From a virus (lineage: Duplodnaviria > Heunggongvirae > Uroviricota > Caudoviricetes): 8,231 bases of DNA. The stretch is from the IMG/VR virus record IMGVR_UViG_2671180695_000017. One strand, 5' to 3'. Made by a program: the position numbers and the translations under genes. Position 1 is the stretch's first letter, and each line of letters begins with the position of its first letter. This document shows positions 722-7,897 of the stretch, piece by piece. The notes below the pieces were generated by a model. It worked only from the letters and a program-made list of their open reading frames with translations, searched no databases and had not been told where the DNA came from.

Positions 722-1408
722 ATGACCCCAATAAAAATATTTATGACTATTGCTGATTTCAAACGGCCTAAATTGGAGCTCCCAAACGGGGCAAACAAAC
801 TACTACTGCACTCTTGCTGTGCTCCATGTTCCGGTGAAGTGATGGAGGCGCTTCAGGCCTCGGGAATCGACTACACCATCTTTTTCTACAACCCGAACAT
901 TCATCCTCAGAAAGAGTATTTAATTCGTAAGGATGAAAATATTCGCTTTGCTGAACAACACGGCGTGCCGTTTATCGATGCTGATTACGACACCGACAAC
1001 TGGTTTGAACGTGCCAAAGGAATGGAATGGGAGCCTGAGAGGGGGATCCGTTGTACCATGTGTTTTGACATGCGTTTTGAGCGGACAGCGTTGTACGCTG
1101 CTGAAAATGGTTTCAGTGTGATCAGCAGTTCACTGGGCATTTCACGCTGGAAAAATATGCAGCAGGTTAACGAGTGTGGGCGGCGAGCTGTTGCGCATTA
1201 TCCGGGTATGGTGTACTGGGATTATAACTGGCGCAAGCAGGGCGGCTCGTCCCGTATGATTGAAATCAGCAAGCGCGAAAAATTCTATCAGCAGGAATAT
1301 TGTGGCTGTGTGTATTCTCTGCGCGATACCAATCTACACCGCAAATCTCAGGGACGCCCTCTTATCAAAATTGGCCAACTCCACTACGGAAAAGAAGAGA
1401 AGGAGTGA
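722..1408 (+). CDS. QueH-like protein (DUF208 family, putative epoxyqueuosine reductase)
   Basis: 228-aa ORF with the N-proximal motif [11 protein letters not shown], which I recall as the hallmark CCAPC cysteine cluster of DUF208/QueH, plus further conserved Cys (CTMC, CGC). No obvious Shine-Dalgarno before the ATG at 722; an alternative ATG lies at 743. Family assignment is from motif memory, not a search. Confidence 0.55.
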
Positions 1409-1469: not shown

Positions 1470-1534
1470 GGCTGCGGGTGCTTGAGGCTATCTGTCTCAG
1501 GCATGAACACTGAAAGGCAGATAGAGAAAAGCCC

Positions 1535-1597
1535 CAGTTAACATTTCGCGTCCTGCAAGACGCTTAACATTAATCTGAGGCCCAATCTATGTCTCAC
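1535..1597 (-). ncRNA. Putative Sok-like antisense RNA (antitoxin of the hok-family locus); ends approximate
   Basis: By analogy with hok/sok and the K-12 hokC/mokC/sokC locus, the antisense RNA overlaps the mok start and SD. On the minus strand there is a candidate -35 TTGCCT (+ coordinates 1627-1632), a 17-nt spacer and a weak -10 TAACCT (1604-1609), giving a start near 1597 that would cover the mok ATG (1589-1591) and its GAGG SD (1577-1580). The 3' end is not defined. Confidence 0.25.
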
Positions 1598-1801
1598 AAA
1601 TGTAGGTTAGCCTCTTACGTGCCGAAAGGCAAGGGGAAGCAGGCTATGAAGCAGCAAAAGGCGATGTTAATCGCCCTGATCGTCATCTGTTTAACCGTCA
1701 TAGTGACGGCACTGGTAACGAGGAAAGACCTCTGCGAGGTACGACTCCGAACCGGCCAGACGGAGGTCGCTGTCTTCACAGCTTACGAACCTGAGGAGTA
1801 A
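1589..1801 (+). CDS. Mok-like ORF: in-frame N-terminal extension of the hok-family toxin frame
   Basis: ATG at 1589 with a GAGG SD at 1577-1580 (8-nt spacer), in the same frame and sharing the stop with the toxin ORF. This matches my recollection that K-12 mokC is an in-frame extension of hokC. Confidence 0.5.
   Translation: MSHKCRLASYVPKGKGKQAMKQQKAMLIALIVICLTVIVTALVTRKDLCEVRLRTGQTEVAVFTAYEPEE
1646..1801 (+). CDS. hok: Hok/Gef-family type I toxin (51-aa small membrane peptide)
   Basis: Translation MKQQKAMLIALIVICLTVIVTALVTRKDLCEVRLRTGQTEVAVFTAYEPEE is colinear with and close to E. coli Gef/HokC as I recall it (MKQHKAMIVALIVICITAVVAALVTRKDLCEVHIRTGQTEVAVFTAYESE). Strong SD AAGGGGA at 1631-1637 with an 8-nt spacer; hydrophobic transmembrane segment followed by the conserved RKDLCEV...TGQTEVA motif. 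Confidence 0.85.
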   Translation: MKQQKAMLIALIVICLTVIVTALVTRKDLCEVRLRTGQTEVAVFTAYEPEE

Positions 1802-2242: not shown

Positions 2243-3525
2243 GTGCGGGTATTACTTCGACCTGTTCTGGTACCGGAACTCGGGCTGGTGATCGTTAAGC
2301 CGGGCCGTGAATCCATGCCGGTATTCCACAATACCCGGGTACTGGTGGAGCCGGAACCGAAAAGCATGCGTAATCTGTCGTCCGGGGTCGTTCCTGCCGT
2401 TCGCCAGCCGCTGGCGGAGGATAAATCATTACTGCCATTTTTCAGCGACGAACGAGTGATTCGTGCTGCTGGTGGCGCTGGCGCATTGTCTGACTGGTTA
2501 CTGCGCCATGTTAAATCCTGCCAGTGGCCACACGGCGATTATCACCACAGTGAAACCGTCATTCACCGTTATGGTACCGGCGCAATGGTGTTGTGCTGGC
2601 ACTGCGACAACCAGCTGCGCGACCAGACCTCCGAATCACTCGGGCAACTTGCTCACCAAAACCTGTTTGCATGGATGATTGACGTCATACGCCATGCAAT
2701 GAATGGCTCGCAGGAACGGGAATTATCGCTGGCTGAATTATCCTGGTGGGCGGTCCGCAATCAGGTGGCGGACGCGCTACCGGAAGCGGTATTACGTCAG
2801 GTACCGGCGCAATGGTGTTGTGCTGGCACTGCGACAACCAGCTGCGCGACCAGACCTCCGAATCACTCGGGCAACTTGCTCACCAAAACCTGTCTGCATG
2901 GATGATTGACGTCATACTCCATGCAATGATTGGCTCGCAGGAACGGGAATTATCGCTGGCTGAATTATCCTGGTGGGCGGTCCGCAATCAGGTGGCGGAC
3001 GCGCTACCGGAAGCGGTATTACGTCGTTCGCTGGGGTTGCGTGCGGAAAAAATCCGCTCAATGTACCGTGAAAGCGACATCGTACCGGGAGAGCAGACCG
3101 CCACCAGCATACTGAAGCAGCGCACAAAAAATCTTGCGCCGCTGCCTCACGCCCACCAGCAAAACCCGCCACAGGAAAAGACGGTGGTCAGCATTGCCGT
3201 TGATCCGGAGTCACCGGCTCAGTATCTCCAGCGCCAGAAATCACAACGGGAAGAGATGCCTGTATACACGCGTTGGGTAAAAACGCAGAAATGCATGACG
3301 TGTGGCAATCAGGCAGATGATCCGCATCACATCATTGGTCATGGACTGGGAGGGATGGGAACAAAGGCTGATGATTTGTTTGTTATTCCGCTGTGCCGTA
3401 AATGCCATAGCGAACTACACGCCGGGGTAAAAGATTTTGAAGAAAAACACGGCAGCCAGCTGTTGTTGCTGATTCGTTTTTTAATGCACGCGAGAAATTC
3501 GGGTGTTTTGAAGTGGAAAGCATAA
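2243..3525 (+). pseudogene. YbcO-like (DUF1364-type) zinc-binding putative nuclease gene with N-terminal extension, frame-disrupted by a 227-bp tandem duplication
   Basis: GTG at 2243 with GGAGG at 2234-2238. The frame-2 ORF 2243..2905 and the frame-1 ORF 2746..3525 encode the same ~75-aa stretch (GTGAMVLCWHCDNQLRDQTSESLGQLAHQNL...AVRNQVADALPEAVLR) because 2573-2799 is repeated at 2800-3026 (227 nt, equal to 2 mod 3). Removing one copy gives a single continuous 351-codon ORF ending at 3525. The C-terminus (CMTCGNQADDPHHIIGHG...IPLCRKCHSELH) has a CxxC...HH...CxxCH motif and sits directly upstream of rusA, as ybcO does in DLP12. Confidence 0.55.
2573..3026 (+). repeat. Tandem direct duplication, 2 x 227 bp, 3 mismatches between copies
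   Basis: Direct comparison: 2573-2799 and 2800-3026 are identical except three substitutions (ctgtTtgc vs ctgtCtgc; atacGcc vs atacTcc; atgaAtgg vs atgaTtgg). Junction ...attacgtc|ag|gtaccgg. Confidence 0.9.
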
Positions 3526-3906
3526 ATGACTGAACGCATAGAATTTGTTTTGCCTTACCCGCCAACGGTGAACACTTACTGGCGTCGTCGTGGCAGCACA
3601 TATTTTGTATCAAAAGCCGGGGAGCGTTATCGCCGGGCAGTGGCGCTTATTGTTCGCCAGCAGCGGCTGAAATTAAGCCTGTCCGGAAGGTTGGCAATAA
3701 AAATTATTGCAGAACCACCGGATAAGCGCCGCCGTGACCTGGACAATATTCTGAAAGCGCCGCTGGATGCGCTGACGCATGCGGGGTTGCTAATGGACGA
3801 TGAGCAGTTTGATGAAATCAATATCGTTCGTGCTCAGCCAGTATCTGGTGGACGTCTGGGGGTGAAGATTTACCCCATAATGCTTGAAGGGCAGGTCAAA
3901 AAATGA
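3526..3906 (+). CDS. rusA: RusA-family Holliday junction resolvase
   Basis: 126-aa protein with PPDKRRRDLDNILKAPLDALTHAGLLMDDEQ and GGRLGV, matching the conserved RusA core as I recall it for E. coli RusA ([23 protein letters not shown]...DD...GGRL). The ATG overlaps the upstream stop (TAAATG). Confidence 0.85.
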   Translation: MTERIEFVLPYPPTVNTYWRRRGSTYFVSKAGERYRRAVALIVRQQRLKLSLSGRLAIKIIAEPPDKRRRDLDNILKAPLDALTHAGLLMDDEQFDEINIVRAQPVSGGRLGVKIYPIMLEGQVKK

Positions 3907-4724
3907 AACTGGAAGATTTACCGAAATACTACTCCCCAAAATCCCCCGGCCTGACTGATGCATCGGCCTCAACGTCGAAAGATGCGCTGAGTATCACTGA
4001 TGTGATGGCCGCGCAGGGCATGACACCGAATCGGGCTGAGATGGGGTTTTCTGCGTTCCTTGGGAAAATGGGCATTAGTATGAATGACAGAGAGCGGGCA
4101 ACAGAATTGCTGACAGAATATGCACTCAGTCGGTGTGATCGCGTGGCGGCGTTAAGAAAACTCCCGGCAGAAATAAAACCGGTAGTGATGCGCATTATGG
4201 CTTCGTACGCTTTTGAGGATTATGCCCGCAGCGCAGCGAGTAAAAAGCAGTGCCCTTGTTGCTATGGGGAAAAATTTATTGAAAGCGTAGTTTTTACAAA
4301 CAAGGTCCAGTATCCGGATGGTAAGCCGCCGGTATGGGCAAAGTGTACGAAAGGTGTGTATCCGTCTTACTGGGAAGAATGGAAAAAAGTCAGGGAGGTG
4401 GTAAAAGTTGCCTGTCCGGAGTGTGGCGGAAAGGGTGAGGTTTCCACCGCCTGTAAGGATTGCCGTGGGCGTGGTGTCGCCATTCATCGTGAAGAGTCGG
4501 TAAAACGTGGTATGCCTGTTATCAGAGACTGCCAGCGTTGTGGTGGTCGTGGCTGTGAAAGACTACCATCAACGGAGGCATTTAATGCCATATGCAAAGT
4601 GACGAGTGCTATCACGCTTGATACGTGGAAAAAATCAGTGAAACGCTTTTACGATACGTTGGTGGTTCGGTTTGACATTGAAGAGGCATGGGCGGAGCGG
4701 CAGTTAAAGAGGGTAACGCGATAG
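3903..4724 (+). CDS. Putative late-gene antiterminator (Q-like) with DnaJ-type CxxCxGxG zinc-finger repeats
   Basis: Position is diagnostic: directly after rusA (ATGA overlap) and directly before a promoter that matches lambda PR' through its -10 and initial transcribed region. The protein carries CPCC plus three CxxCxGxG repeats (CPECGGKG, CKDCRGRG, CQRCGGRG). The N-terminus resembles what I recall of Qin-prophage Q homologues, but that recollection is not secure. Confidence 0.55.
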   Translation: MKLEDLPKYYSPKSPGLTDASASTSKDALSITDVMAAQGMTPNRAEMGFSAFLGKMGISMNDRERATELLTEYALSRCDRVAALRKLPAEIKPVVMRIMASYAFEDYARSAASKKQCPCCYGEKFIESVVFTNKVQYPDGKPPVWAKCTKGVYPSYWEEWKKVREVVKVACPECGGKGEVSTACKDCRGRGVAIHREESVKRGMPVIRDCQRCGGRGCERLPSTEAFNAICKVTSAITLDTWKKSVKRFYDTLVVRFDIEEAWAERQLKRVTR

Positions 4725-4805: not shown

Positions 4806-4830
4806 CCCCGCCGCCTGGCGGGTTTTTTAT
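4806..4830 (+). terminator. tR'-like intrinsic terminator downstream of the late promoter
   Basis: Stem CCCGCC / GGCGGG (4807-4812 pairing with 4817-4822), GCCT loop, followed by TTTTTT (4823-4828). Lies ~45-65 nt downstream of the predicted late start, so a short terminated transcript is expected without Q. Confidence 0.6.
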
Positions 4831-5298: not shown

Positions 5299-6348
5299 AT
5301 GCTTAATACTGTAAAAATATCCAGTTGTGAGTTAATCAACGCCGACTGCCTGGAATTTATCCGGTCGTTACCCGAAAATTCTGTTGACCTGATAGTCACG
5401 GACCCGCCGTACTTTAAAGTGAAGCCTGAGGGCTGGGATAACCAGTGGAAGGGCGACGATGATTACCTGAAGTGGCTGGACCAGTGTCTGGCGCAGTTCT
5501 GGCGGGTGCTGAAACCTGCCGGAAGTCTTTACCTGTTCTGTGGTCATCGCCTGGCATCTGATATCGAAATCATGATGCGTGAACGCTTCAGTGTGCTGAA
5601 CCATATTATCTGGGCGAAGCCGTCCGGACGCTGGAACGGATGCAACAAGGAAAGCCTGCGGGCGTATTTCCCCGCCACAGAGCGCATTCTGTTCGCGGAA
5701 CATTATCAGGGGCCGTATCGTCCGAAAGATGCCGGGTATGCGGCGAAGGGCAGTGCACTGAAACAGCATGTGATGGCCCCGCTGATTTCTTACTTTCGTG
5801 ATGCGCGCGCGGCCCTGGGGATAACGGCAAAACAGATTGCAGATGCCACAGGAAAGAAAAACATGGTGTCGCACTGGTTCAGTGCCAGTCAGTGGCAGCT
5901 ACCGAACGAAAGCGATTATCTGAAATTACAGTCGCTGTTTGCCCGGGTGGCAGAAGAGAAACATCAGCGCGGTGAACTGGAAAAGCCCCACCACCAGCTG
6001 GTGGATACGTATACGTCACTGAACCGGCAGTATGTGGAGCTGCAGAGTGAATATAAGCATCTGCGGCGGTATTTTGGTGTGACGGCGCAGGTGCCGTACA
6101 CGGATGTGTGGACACATAAACCGGTGCAGTTCTATCCCGGGAAACATCCGTGCGAAAAACCGGCAGAAATGCTGCAGCAGATAATCAGCGCAAGCAGTCG
6201 TCCGGGTGACCTGGTTGCAGATTTTTTTATGGGCTCAGGTTCAACGGTAAAAGCTGCACTGGCGCTCGGGCGTCGTGCGATTGGCGTTGAACTGGAGACC
6301 GGACGTTTTGAGCAGACAGTCAGGGAAGTTCAGGATTTAATCGTTTGA
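5299..6348 (+). CDS. Orphan DNA methyltransferase, beta-class (DPPY motif IV N-terminal, FxGxG motif I C-terminal); probably N6-adenine-specific
   Basis: DPPYF at residues 35-39 (nt 5401-5415) and FFMGSGST near the C-terminus (around nt 6224-6247), in the circularly permuted order typical of beta-class amino-methyltransferases. No restriction endonuclease gene is adjacent. Confidence 0.85.
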   Translation: MLNTVKISSCELINADCLEFIRSLPENSVDLIVTDPPYFKVKPEGWDNQWKGDDDYLKWLDQCLAQFWRVLKPAGSLYLFCGHRLASDIEIMMRERFSVLNHIIWAKPSGRWNGCNKESLRAYFPATERILFAEHYQGPYRPKDAGYAAKGSALKQHVMAPLISYFRDARAALGITAKQIADATGKKNMVSHWFSASQWQLPNESDYLKLQSLFARVAEEKHQRGELEKPHHQLVDTYTSLNRQYVELQSEYKHLRRYFGVTAQVPYTDVWTHKPVQFYPGKHPCEKPAEMLQQIISASSRPGDLVADFFMGSGSTVKAALALGRRAIGVELETGRFEQTVREVQDLIV

Positions 6349-6397
6349 AACGGATGAGATTGCAGAATTAATTACGCACCATTATTATTCTGCTTCC

Positions 6398-6473
6398 GGC
6401 CCTTTAGCTCAGTGGTGAGAGCGAGCGACTCATAATCGCCAGGTCGCTGGTTCAAATCCAGCAAGGGCCACCA
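6398..6473 (+). tRNA. tRNA with CAU anticodon, closest to E. coli tRNA-Ile2 (lysidine type, reads AUA); phage ileZ-like
   Basis: Manual cloverleaf: acceptor GGCCCTT/AAGGGCC, D-arm GCTC-AGTGGTGA-GAGC, anticodon loop CTCATAA (CAT at 6431-6433), T-arm GCTGG-TTCAAAT-CCAGC, discriminator A plus encoded CCA. Very similar to E. coli ileX as I recall it. Position 27-43 is an A-C mismatch. Confidence 0.85.
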
Positions 6474-6480
6474 TCACAAA

Positions 6481-6560
6481 CCGCCATTAGCTTATCAGGA
6501 AGAGCAGACGACACGATAACAGGGTTGTTGGTGCGGGGGCGGGTCCCCGATGGCGGTCCA
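6481..6560 (+). pseudogene. Degenerate tRNA-like element between the two tRNAs (possible decayed argN-type tRNA)
   Basis: A 7-bp acceptor-like stem (CCGCCAT 6481-6487 pairing with ATGGCGG 6550-6556) followed by TCCA, a plausible D-arm (GCTT-ATCAGGAA-GAGC) and a 5-bp GC T-like stem (6534-6538 / 6545-6549). But the T-loop is 6 nt (GCGGGT, not TTCRANY) and I could not fold a canonical anticodon arm. Confidence 0.25.
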
Positions 6561-6573
6561 TTATCGGTATTCA

Positions 6574-6650
6574 GCGTTGTTAGCTCAGCCGGACAGAGCA
6601 ATTGCCTTCTAAGCAATCGGTCACTGGTTCGAATCCAGTACAGCGCGCCA
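6574..6650 (+). tRNA. tRNA-Arg (anticodon UCU, reads AGA/AGG); phage argO/argN-like
   Basis: Manual cloverleaf: acceptor GCGTTGT/ACAGCGC (one G-U pair), D-arm GCTC-AGCCGGACA-GAGC, anticodon stem ATTGC/GCAAT with loop CTTCTAA (TCT at 6608-6610), T-arm ACTGG-TTCGAAT-CCAGT, discriminator G plus CCA. Resembles E. coli argU. Confidence 0.85.
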
Positions 6651-6757
6651 TATTCATTCTTCCAGATTCCTTTCGGCAGAGCCTTATACTGAAATATACC
6701 TGGCTCAGGATATTGTTGAAAATATTATATGTTTGTCAAAAATAAAAGTTCTGTTAA

Positions 6758-7114
6758 GTGTTGATTGAGTGTTTGTTATACGGTCTAATGGTTTTTTCAG
6801 CATTAAATATTTATCATTCATATGGTGTGGGTAGAGTGAATATTGATGAGGCGTCGGGGTGTTTCATCCTTAGGCAGCGTATTGATATAGTCAATGCAGA
6901 ACGAGCAAAGGCCTTCAGCCGTTTGACAGTTTTGTTCTGTACTCCTGATCGTCTTTCGGGAAGAGACGTTATTATTCTGAATAGTGATGCTATACAGAGG
7001 GTTTGCGATGAGTTCATGGTTGCTAATTCAGAATTATTTGCTCTTGTTCAGGAGTACAACAGAATAGCCAGGACCTGTGGTATGGATGAACTTCGGATTA
7101 CTCATCTGGGGTAG
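6758..7114 (+). CDS. Hypothetical cargo ORF (up to 118 aa; start uncertain)
   Basis: Longest ORF in the AT-rich island. Candidate starts are GTG 6758, ATG 6788 and GTG 6836 (the last with a weak GGGTAGAG SD-like element); none has a convincing RBS. No recognisable motif. Confidence 0.3.
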   Translation: MLIECLLYGLMVFSALNIYHSYGVGRVNIDEASGCFILRQRIDIVNAERAKAFSRLTVLFCTPDRLSGRDVIILNSDAIQRVCDEFMVANSELFALVQEYNRIARTCGMDELRITHLG

Positions 7115-7194
7115 ATACATATCTGGATTATCACCTGTTACGGTAAAAAGTGATTGCTTACTGTTTTTGTGAATGGCATTGCAGCAGCCGGATA

Positions 7195-7281
7195 ATGTCA
7201 GTGCTGGCTGACGGTGTGCTGGTGGCGGGTGTGGTGGTTGCTGCTTTCCCGTTGCTGAAAAAGAAAACGCCAGACTGTTAG
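7195..7281 (+). CDS. Candidate small hydrophobic peptide ORF (28 aa) in the ORF-poor cargo spacer
   Basis: ATG 7195 to TAG 7279-7281 encodes MSVLADGVLVAGVVVAAFPLLKKKTPDC, a hydrophobic helix-length segment followed by KKK. The SD is weak (GGA 2 nt upstream), so this may be a chance ORF in GT-rich sequence. Confidence 0.15.
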   Translation: MSVLADGVLVAGVVVAAFPLLKKKTPDC

Positions 7282-7505
7282 CCGGGTATCAGTTAGCGGG
7301 AGAAATTTTTAAATACTTCACAATTCAGGCGGTTGATTGTTGTCTGGTTTGCGGGGAGTTTGTTAAAAGAAACTGGCATGGTGAATCCCCCTGTGCGGAG
7401 GGGCAATCAGCGAGTAGGTATATGGGATAATCGCGGATTCAGGTGCTGGTACTGAATTCACCGGGAGGCACCCGGCACCATGCAATGGCACATAGCGCCA
7501 CTCTC

Positions 7506-7535
7506 CAGCCCCTCTCCGGAGGGGCTGTTTATATT
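7506..7535 (+). terminator. Strong intrinsic terminator (+ strand) between the convergent cargo ORFs
   Basis: Perfect 9-bp GC-rich stem CAGCCCCTC / GAGGGGCTG (7506-7514 pairing with 7519-7527), TCCG tetraloop, followed by TTTATATTGATTTT. The opposite strand lacks a T-tract after the hairpin, so it is oriented to stop + strand transcripts. Confidence 0.55.
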
Positions 7536-7561
7536 GATTTTGTCAGATGTGAGTAAACTCC

Positions 7562-7897
7562 TTATGGACTTTGTTGTTTTAGTCCATAAGGACATATTTG
7601 CAGAGTGCAACGGTTATTAAAGCATTCATTCAATACGTTATCTGTATTTGTAGGGCATTCCTGGCTGTTTTTGATTAAATTCCAGAATGTTTTATTGAAT
7701 GGTACTACGTTGTAAATGGTTACAGGTAGCACTTTGTTATTGAGCATGATGCCTGTGTGAGTCAGTGTAAATATACTTTCAGGAGGTAAGAAAGCATCCG
7801 ATTGATACCAGATTATTAATTTTATTTTACTCCATATGACTGAAAAAGATATTCCGCATGATGGCTGGATAACTGTATCAATCACAATCCACTTCAT
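7562..7897 (-). CDS. Hypothetical cargo protein (111 aa) with C-terminal cysteine cluster, encoded antisense to the late operon
   Basis: ATG (7895-7897 on the minus strand) preceded by AAGGA with a 5-nt spacer. C-terminal C-x10-C-x4-C-x4-C pattern ([23 protein letters not shown]). The last 9 codons and the TAA stop lie inside a perfect 10-bp hairpin (7561-7590). About 33% GC. Confidence 0.45.

Follow-up and report, generated by a model that had tools for sequence, protein, structure and literature searches.

Genes and features of the locus

The window, i.e., the whole 8,231-nt stretch of viral DNA analysed here (IMG/VR record IMGVR_UViG_2671180695_000017), is taken from a lambdoid E. coli prophage and comprises its right-hand regulatory and late-start region. 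Its genes are arranged in the order DUF977, QueH, hok/sok, a DUF968 gene that is split by a duplication, RusA and then the Q antiterminator, from which point the following features were recognised:

3903-4724: Q antiterminator gene (PF03589)
4807-4822, plus strand: tR'-like intrinsic terminator (terminator scan), ~85 nt past the Q gene
between this terminator and the methylase gene: ORF of 65 aa
5299-6348: N6/N4 DNA methylase gene
6398-6473: tRNA-Ile2 (CAU)
6574-6650, plus strand: tRNA-Arg (TCT/UCU; ARAGORN, Rfam), the upstream neighbour of the ORF under study
6758-7114, plus strand: the ORF under study, 118 codons from GTG 6758 to TAG 7112-7114
7150-7281, plus strand: DUF3927/TciB-like gene for a small membrane protein, N-terminally shortened, downstream of the ORF (PF13064 at E 1.3e-26, profile 7-53 of 53; phrog_1470; PGAP)
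7347-7536, plus strand: STnc100-family sRNA
7562-7897, minus strand, against late transcription: prophage-borne homologue of the IraM anti-adaptor (NCBIfam NF007393, E 4.7e-48)

In relatives, a sialate esterase gene and then a holin gene come after this region. The nin-like region of the prophage, at the other end of the window, carries the epoxyqueuosine reductase gene queH (722-1408, plus strand; PF02677, E 1e-65) and a hok/sok toxin-antitoxin locus (1476-1801, plus strand). Further along, a DUF968/HNH-like gene that a relative (L001) has intact is split into two ORFs (2243-2905 and 2746-3525, overlapping) by a tandem duplication whose 226-nt copies, at 2573-2798 and 2800-3025, are 99% identical and spaced at 227 nt.

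A reading of the sequence alone had singled out the 118-codon ORF as cargo that is co-directional with late transcription and as the longest ORF of its island. Both points held: the ORF lies on the late strand, after Q, and is the longest between the tRNAs and the IraM gene. G+C content drops from about 0.51-0.55 over the methylase gene to about 0.38-0.42 over the ORF. Since chance ORFs of at least 118 aa arose in 5.6% of dinucleotide shuffles of 6651-7561, we dropped ORF length as evidence for coding.

Conservation and start of the reading frame

Only positions 6836-7114 of the ORF are the gene, and its product has 92 aa. The features in and around it, as resolved with the help of two diverged E. 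coli lineages (L009 and L105), are:

6758-6835, plus strand: in-frame 5' extension outside the gene, 5' untranslated or promoter-proximal (comparative evidence)
6812-6817, plus strand: -10-like hexamer TATCAT, a putative promoter (TATCAT in L105 and TATAAT in L009 by alignment)
6814-7017, minus strand: antisense ORF, a spurious mirror of the sense frame
6822-6839, plus strand: five-codon mini-ORF (ATG GTG TGG GTA GAG TGA) that has no Shine-Dalgarno (SD) sequence of its own and ends within GTGA, its stop overlapping the GTG start
6824-6832, plus strand: degenerate SD GGTGTGGGT (-5.4 kcal/mol), aligned to CAGGAG of L105
6836-7114, plus strand: coding sequence of 92 aa with GTG start and TAG stop (family alignment, dN/dS, AF2; member of PHROG 2873)
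7115-7149, plus strand: deletion scar, in which ~30 nt from the 3' end of a TerB-like tciA survive (aligned to L105 and phage JLK-2012; JLK-2012 annotation)

E. coli homologues at 56-64% identity hold the frame from the GTG to the stop, profile searches added homologous proteins of 91-110 aa from Citrobacter, Salmonella, Morganella, Serratia and Xenorhabdus, and the reading frame is open, with ORFs of 91-99 aa, in eight lineages from six genera. A lack of frame conservation among related islands, which the sequence-only reading had envisaged, is thus not what we found, since diverged homologues keep the frame from the GTG onwards. The comparison of synonymous with non-synonymous change that it had proposed was run across lineages and revealed purifying selection. 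Aligned with L009 and L105, the window is gap-free over a 276-nt core, in which dN/dS in the ORF frame was 0.24 (window-L009) and 0.21 (window-L105) vs. about 0.9-1.3 in four of the five other frames. Differences were distributed 24/21/43 over the three codon positions. In more distant pairs synonymous sites were saturated, with pN at 0.2-0.6.

In the fifth of the other frames, which is antisense and has its wobble positions in common with the gene, dN/dS was 0.22, but stop codons are present. The short antisense ORF to which the sequence-only reading had drawn attention does exist on the minus strand; it is an artefact, however, and appears conserved because its wobble positions are shared with the gene. 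Its ATG is missing from L009, where a stop also interrupts it, and it does not cover 7018-7080, the best-conserved segment of the locus.

Closer relatives of the window gave a consistent picture. None of 80 related alleles carries an indel inside the ORF, which is intact in all of them, whereas indels are many in the flanks and the tRNA spacer upstream is full of them. Polymorphic sites, of which the 357 nt of the ORF hold 12, are likewise sparser than in the flanks. Within the lineage, the core shows five non-synonymous and four synonymous changes where 3.4:1 would be expected under neutrality, a difference that is not significant (P = 0.13). One common change, E22A/G, adjoins an invariant Arg. 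Amino-acid changes specific to a lineage number 8 in the window, 12 in L009 and 10 in L105, and therefore neither relaxed constraint nor acceleration is seen in the window lineage.

The comparative evidence places the probable translation start at GTG 6836, later than had been supposed from the sequence alone. Pairing with the 3' end of 16S rRNA was calculated for five candidate starts (-0.4 kcal/mol at 6758, -1.3 at 6761, -3.9 at 6788, -2.4 at 6827 and -5.4 at 6836), among which GTG 6836 pairs best. The earlier observation that no candidate start has a good SD was nevertheless borne out: against the background of the window (median -3.8, 25th percentile -5.9 kcal/mol), even this best value stands at about the 30th percentile. 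Homologues in E. coli, Citrobacter, Salmonella, Morganella, Serratia and Xenorhabdus start at the position aligned to GTG 6836, those of Citrobacter, Morganella and Serratia with ATG and a moderate SD (-5.1 to -5.4 kcal/mol) and that of Salmonella with GTG and a weak SD (-3.5 kcal/mol). The sister lineage L105 has a canonical AGGAG-N4-GTG at the same site, where the window reads GTGGG (catatggcAGGAGtagaGTG in L105 aligned with catatggtGTGGGtagaGTG in the window). The start codon itself is the same, with a canonical SD in L105 (catatggcAGGAGtagaGTGAATATTGATGA) and a decayed one in the window (catatggtGTGGGtagaGTGAATATTGATGA). Thus, the start in the window is weak because an ancestral AGGAG, retained at this position by L105, has decayed. 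L009 is also without a canonical SD and has nonetheless kept the ORF.

Several observations concern the 26 in-frame codons 5' of GTG 6836. L009 has an in-frame stop five codons 5' of the GTG, and GTG 6758 is replaced by GTA in 51 of 81 alleles. In the L003 lineage an IS3-family element lies directly 5' of the GTG, in place of the extension. This element (HTH_Tnp_1 and rve; 3762-5075 in L003) also occurs in L004-L008 and is present on at least 24 contigs; its insertion created a chimeric ORF call of 119 aa (P0017). When the 118-aa form was modelled by AF2, its N-terminus was disordered, with pLDDT below 50 at residues 2-4 and 9-25. Four distant homologues carry an in-frame extension of 11 residues that is unrelated to that of the window. 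The profile of PHROG 2873 begins at ATG 6788 (108-aa form), 16 codons before the comparative start, and both the 108-aa and the 92-aa forms have been called by GenBank submitters. Of the range of 93-118 aa first proposed for the product, the lower bound therefore nearly equals the real length of 92 aa, while the upper one includes 26 codons that lie outside the gene.

The sequence-only reading had suggested that the missing SD might be made good by translational coupling, by a leaderless start or by a structured one. Coupling to a coding gene upstream is excluded, since the neighbour on that side is tRNA-Arg, 185 nt away, and since the 5' extension of the frame is unconserved. A leaderless start found no support: GTG is a poor codon for leaderless initiation, and nothing but the five-codon mini-ORF overlaps it. 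Nor did a conserved structured start, given that the consensus fold around the start amounts to -0.69 kcal/mol with no covariation and no compensatory pairs. In a 300-nt context the start region of the window is itself predicted to be mostly paired (unpaired probability 0.13), for which reason we dropped the idea of an unstructured AU-rich leader. The hairpin over the start is of marginal significance (z = -1.9) and specific to the window lineage.

The predicted product and its family

The ORF had been described as having no recognisable family. This holds for Pfam and NCBIfam but not for PHROG, where the window protein matches phrog_2873 at E 1.7e-70 over the full length of the profile (residues 11-118 on profile 1-108 of 108) and has homologues across Enterobacterales. 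Proteins of the sister lineages match the same profile at E 1e-45 to 1e-47. PHROG 4827 matches the window protein weakly and is hit at 1e-17 to 1e-19 by the Morganella and Serratia homologues, which also hit phrog_2873. The size of about 92-99 aa is common to the window protein and these PHROG families, neither of which has an assigned function. Searches of Pfam, NCBIfam and PADLOC gave nothing significant for the window protein or for 21 family members, and a sequence-profile search of the PDB gave no significant match, its best candidate, GapR/UPF0335, being rejected as non-significant (E = 0.1, helix 1 only). Overall, profile and fold searches returned no significant or specific match that would point to a function.

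Structure prediction, which the sequence-only reading had recommended, was more informative. With 21 family sequences, AF2 modelled the 92-aa form confidently (pLDDT 88.6, pTM 0.75) as a hairpin of two long antiparallel helices (residues 3-34 and 50-81), vs. a pLDDT of 68.8 for the 118-aa form. The 92-aa protein (10.5 kDa, pI 5.3) is acidic, soluble and predicted to be cytoplasmic, and no catalytic or membrane feature was found in it. R23, N64 and N75 are invariant, and in the predicted structure two conserved helix patches, ER..AFS.L and AN.EL..LV.EYN..A, face each other near a TPDR loop. The closest known systems include generic antiparallel helical hairpins such as Rop, the prefoldin arms, the arm of seryl-tRNA synthetase and helix 1 of GapR. 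Because of the predicted fold, the two conserved patches and the absence of catalytic or membrane features, our best guess, and the least secure part of our interpretation, is that the protein might be a small adaptor or regulator that acts by binding another protein.

The position of the gene is as constant as its frame. In prophages of E. coli, Citrobacter, Salmonella, Morganella and Serratia it always lies after Q and before the holin/lysis genes, on the late strand, although a methylase gene, tRNAs or a YdeO/GadX-like AraC-family regulator gene may intervene between Q and the homologue. The regulator gene lies directly 5' of the homologue in L009 (3969-4694) and L105 (5142-5870) and is absent from the window; it could regulate the homologue in those lineages, perhaps as an activator. 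The presence of the 92-aa gene is variable: phage JLK-2012 is without it, and a tblastn search of 50,697 phage genomes found a match only in the recombinant phage mEp460_ev081. Eighteen E. coli/Shigella plasmids (L095-L098; hits H92-H101) of pig and cattle origin carry a separate, diverged branch of the family, whose 91-aa protein shares 33-34% identity with that of the window; it is annotated there as a hypothetical protein and lies ~1.2 kb from a PapB-regulated K88-like fimbrial operon.

A G+C-rich, terminator-like hairpin followed by a T run was read by eye 3' of the gene in four relatives (L092, L099, L105 and L107), and such a layout, with a terminator of its own, is usual for a phage cargo gene ("moron"). 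In L105 and Citrobacter, tciA (TerB-like) and tciB (DUF3927) come next downstream. In relatives the gene and its own terminator form a self-contained unit, with tciA and tciB behind it. No terminator was found by scanning 7115-7300 of the window; the deletion marked by the scar shortened tciB and removed, besides the terminator and the leader, nearly the whole of tciA. Having lost ~7-10 N-terminal codons, the TciB-like gene now opens with GTG 7150, whose SD is weak (-3.1 kcal/mol). The TciA/TciB module is known from phage P1 and lambdoid phages, and the window shares with it the retained TciB and the tciA scar; however, TciA and TciB have no sequence similarity to the 92-aa protein, and in L105 a terminator separates them from it. 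An obligatory functional link was rejected because each module is found without the other, JLK-2012 having tciA-tciB without the 92-aa gene and the Salmonella, Morganella, Serratia and plasmid copies having the gene family without tciAB. Since the modules occur independently, we draw no functional link between them.

Classical lambdoid morons include lambda bor and lom and HK97 gp15, and stx occupies the Q-to-lysis slot of Stx phages. The gene in the window resembles them in being a single small gene on the late strand between Q and the lysis cassette, with a G+C content of 39% vs. 50-55% in its neighbours, a terminator in relatives and mosaic gene content around it. It differs in its product, a predicted soluble helical hairpin, whereas these morons encode membrane, surface or toxin proteins with known roles.

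Expression, alternative readings and significance

Taken together, the conserved frame, the shared start position and the constant location make it likely, as far as sequence comparison can tell, that 6836-7114 is a genuine coding cargo gene of a lambdoid prophage that is started at GTG 6836 on a decayed SD. Since a tR'-like terminator follows Q, late transcription would have to be antiterminated by Q to reach the gene. By analogy with lambda and phage 82, Q-modified RNA polymerase would read through the terminators, the methylase gene and the tRNAs into the gene. A weak promoter of the gene's own may act besides this late transcript; it would use the hexamer TATCAT at 6812-6817, for which we saw no -35 element by eye and which a consensus promoter scan did not call. 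The single match of that scan (9/12, at 6716-6743) falls in sequence that the sister lineages do not share. The 26 in-frame codons 5' of GTG 6836 would serve as an untranslated leader, and 30S subunits would initiate in the ordinary way at the GTG on the weak SD GGUGUGGGU, which is AGGAG in the sister lineage. Given the decay of this SD, output is probably low; the gene is probably translated, at a low level. A terminator-like hairpin with a T-rich tail lies within the coding region (6950-6968, plus strand, in the codons for DRLSGRDVIIL); it is unconserved in L009 and probably incidental.

The gene is widespread. Approximately 1,185 of 5,426 complete RefSeq E. coli genomes, CFT073 and ST131 strains included, carry the allele at ≥95% identity, and the main protein alleles are each found on at least 1,000 contigs. 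In RefSeq, however, no feature covers the gene in any of the 37 sampled rows at ≥98% identity; the CFT073 copy is at NC_004431.1 1342661-1343017. RefSeq does annotate a hypothetical protein for a more diverged copy of 76% identity (H90), which probably represents the SD-intact sister lineage.

The main rival to a functional gene is decay towards a pseudogene, in which case the family would be real but the window copy would be translated little or not at all and would persist only through its youth. We regard this as unlikely. It would account for the change of AGGAG to GTGGG at the SD position, yet L009 keeps the ORF though it is also without a canonical SD, and the window lineage has accumulated fewer amino-acid changes (8) than the SD-intact L105 (10) or L009 (12). 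The deletion scar at 7115-7149, with the loss of the terminator and tciA, the predicted pairing of the start region and the fact that PGAP does not call the ORF also fit a decaying copy; against this, the ORF is intact in 80 of 80 related alleles and has the abundance described above. Finally, the common non-synonymous polymorphism at E22 and an N:S ratio of 5:4 that is not significantly below neutral count for decay, but polymorphism in the ORF is less dense than in its flanks.

A broader reading would make PHROG 2873 and PHROG 4827 one unstudied family that heads the late operon of lambdoid prophages across Enterobacterales, occurs also on porcine and bovine E. coli plasmids and acts as a functional lysogenic-conversion, host-rewiring or phage-exclusion factor, missed in more than one-fifth of complete E. 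coli genomes through its atypical ribosome-binding site and maybe expressed via re-initiation after the mini-ORF. In its entirety, we consider this combination doubtful.

An unconventional start has a low probability; in this reading the mini-ORF from ATG 6822 to TGA 6839 would be translated, maybe in (near-)leaderless fashion from a promoter at TATCAT 6812-6817, and ribosomes would re-initiate at GTG 6836. The mini-ORF and its GTGA overlap are shared by the window and L105 (5987-6004), with TTG for ATG in L009, but the mini-ORF is without an SD, and an NTGA at the start is to be expected in any case, given how often second codons are A-rich in the family. The -10-like hexamer is kept in all three lineages, 5-8 nt 5' of the mini-ORF ATG, although with neither a -35 element nor a call by the promoter scan. 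The 45 nt 5' of the GTG are conserved like the coding region (71% vs. 71%); L105, however, has an ordinary SD inside its mini-ORF, and the distant homologues have plain starts with moderate SDs. Re-initiation may occur, or the mini-ORF may be coincidental.

That the region is not coding and acts as RNA, either as a regulator or as a fragment processed from the late transcript, with an incidental ORF, was proposed by the sequence-only reading and is hardly credible: the ORF length is non-significant and a known sRNA family, STnc100, lies 230 nt downstream in the island, but purifying selection is strong and frame-specific across species, the protein fold is predicted with confidence, Rfam gave no match within 6651-7346 at E ≤1 and only the tRNAs and STnc100 in 6300-7600, folding z-scores are unremarkable (-1.5 for 6651-7149), and neither conserved structure nor covariation was found around the start. 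The STnc100 element (7347-7536, 132 bits vs. a gathering score of 47) is a strong match and closes with an intrinsic terminator (7506-7527). It is also conserved in JLK-2012, and L009 may carry two or more copies. A 2026 preprint (bioRxiv 10.64898/2026.05.13.724894) relates STnc100 to the PasD prophage sRNAs, which lie next to sialate esterase genes, and describes PasB among structural genes and PasA, PasC and PasD beside esterase and holin genes. Judged by this described synteny alone, identity of the gene region with a Pas sRNA seems unlikely.

Returning to the likely reading of a translated cargo gene with a decayed SD, its consequences are mainly for annotation. The gene model is corrected to 92 aa from GTG 6836, in place of the 108- or 118-aa forms, and a widespread annotation gap becomes apparent in complete E. 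coli genomes, where the decayed SD makes gene callers miss a conserved gene while the SD-intact sister lineage gets annotated. In other respects this is an ordinary uncharacterised phage cargo gene, and what it offers is an annotation gap and a defined unknown, not a new mechanism. PHROG 2873 and PHROG 4827 can now be joined as one family with a confident predicted fold and fixed synteny, which makes the family a target for prophage biology.
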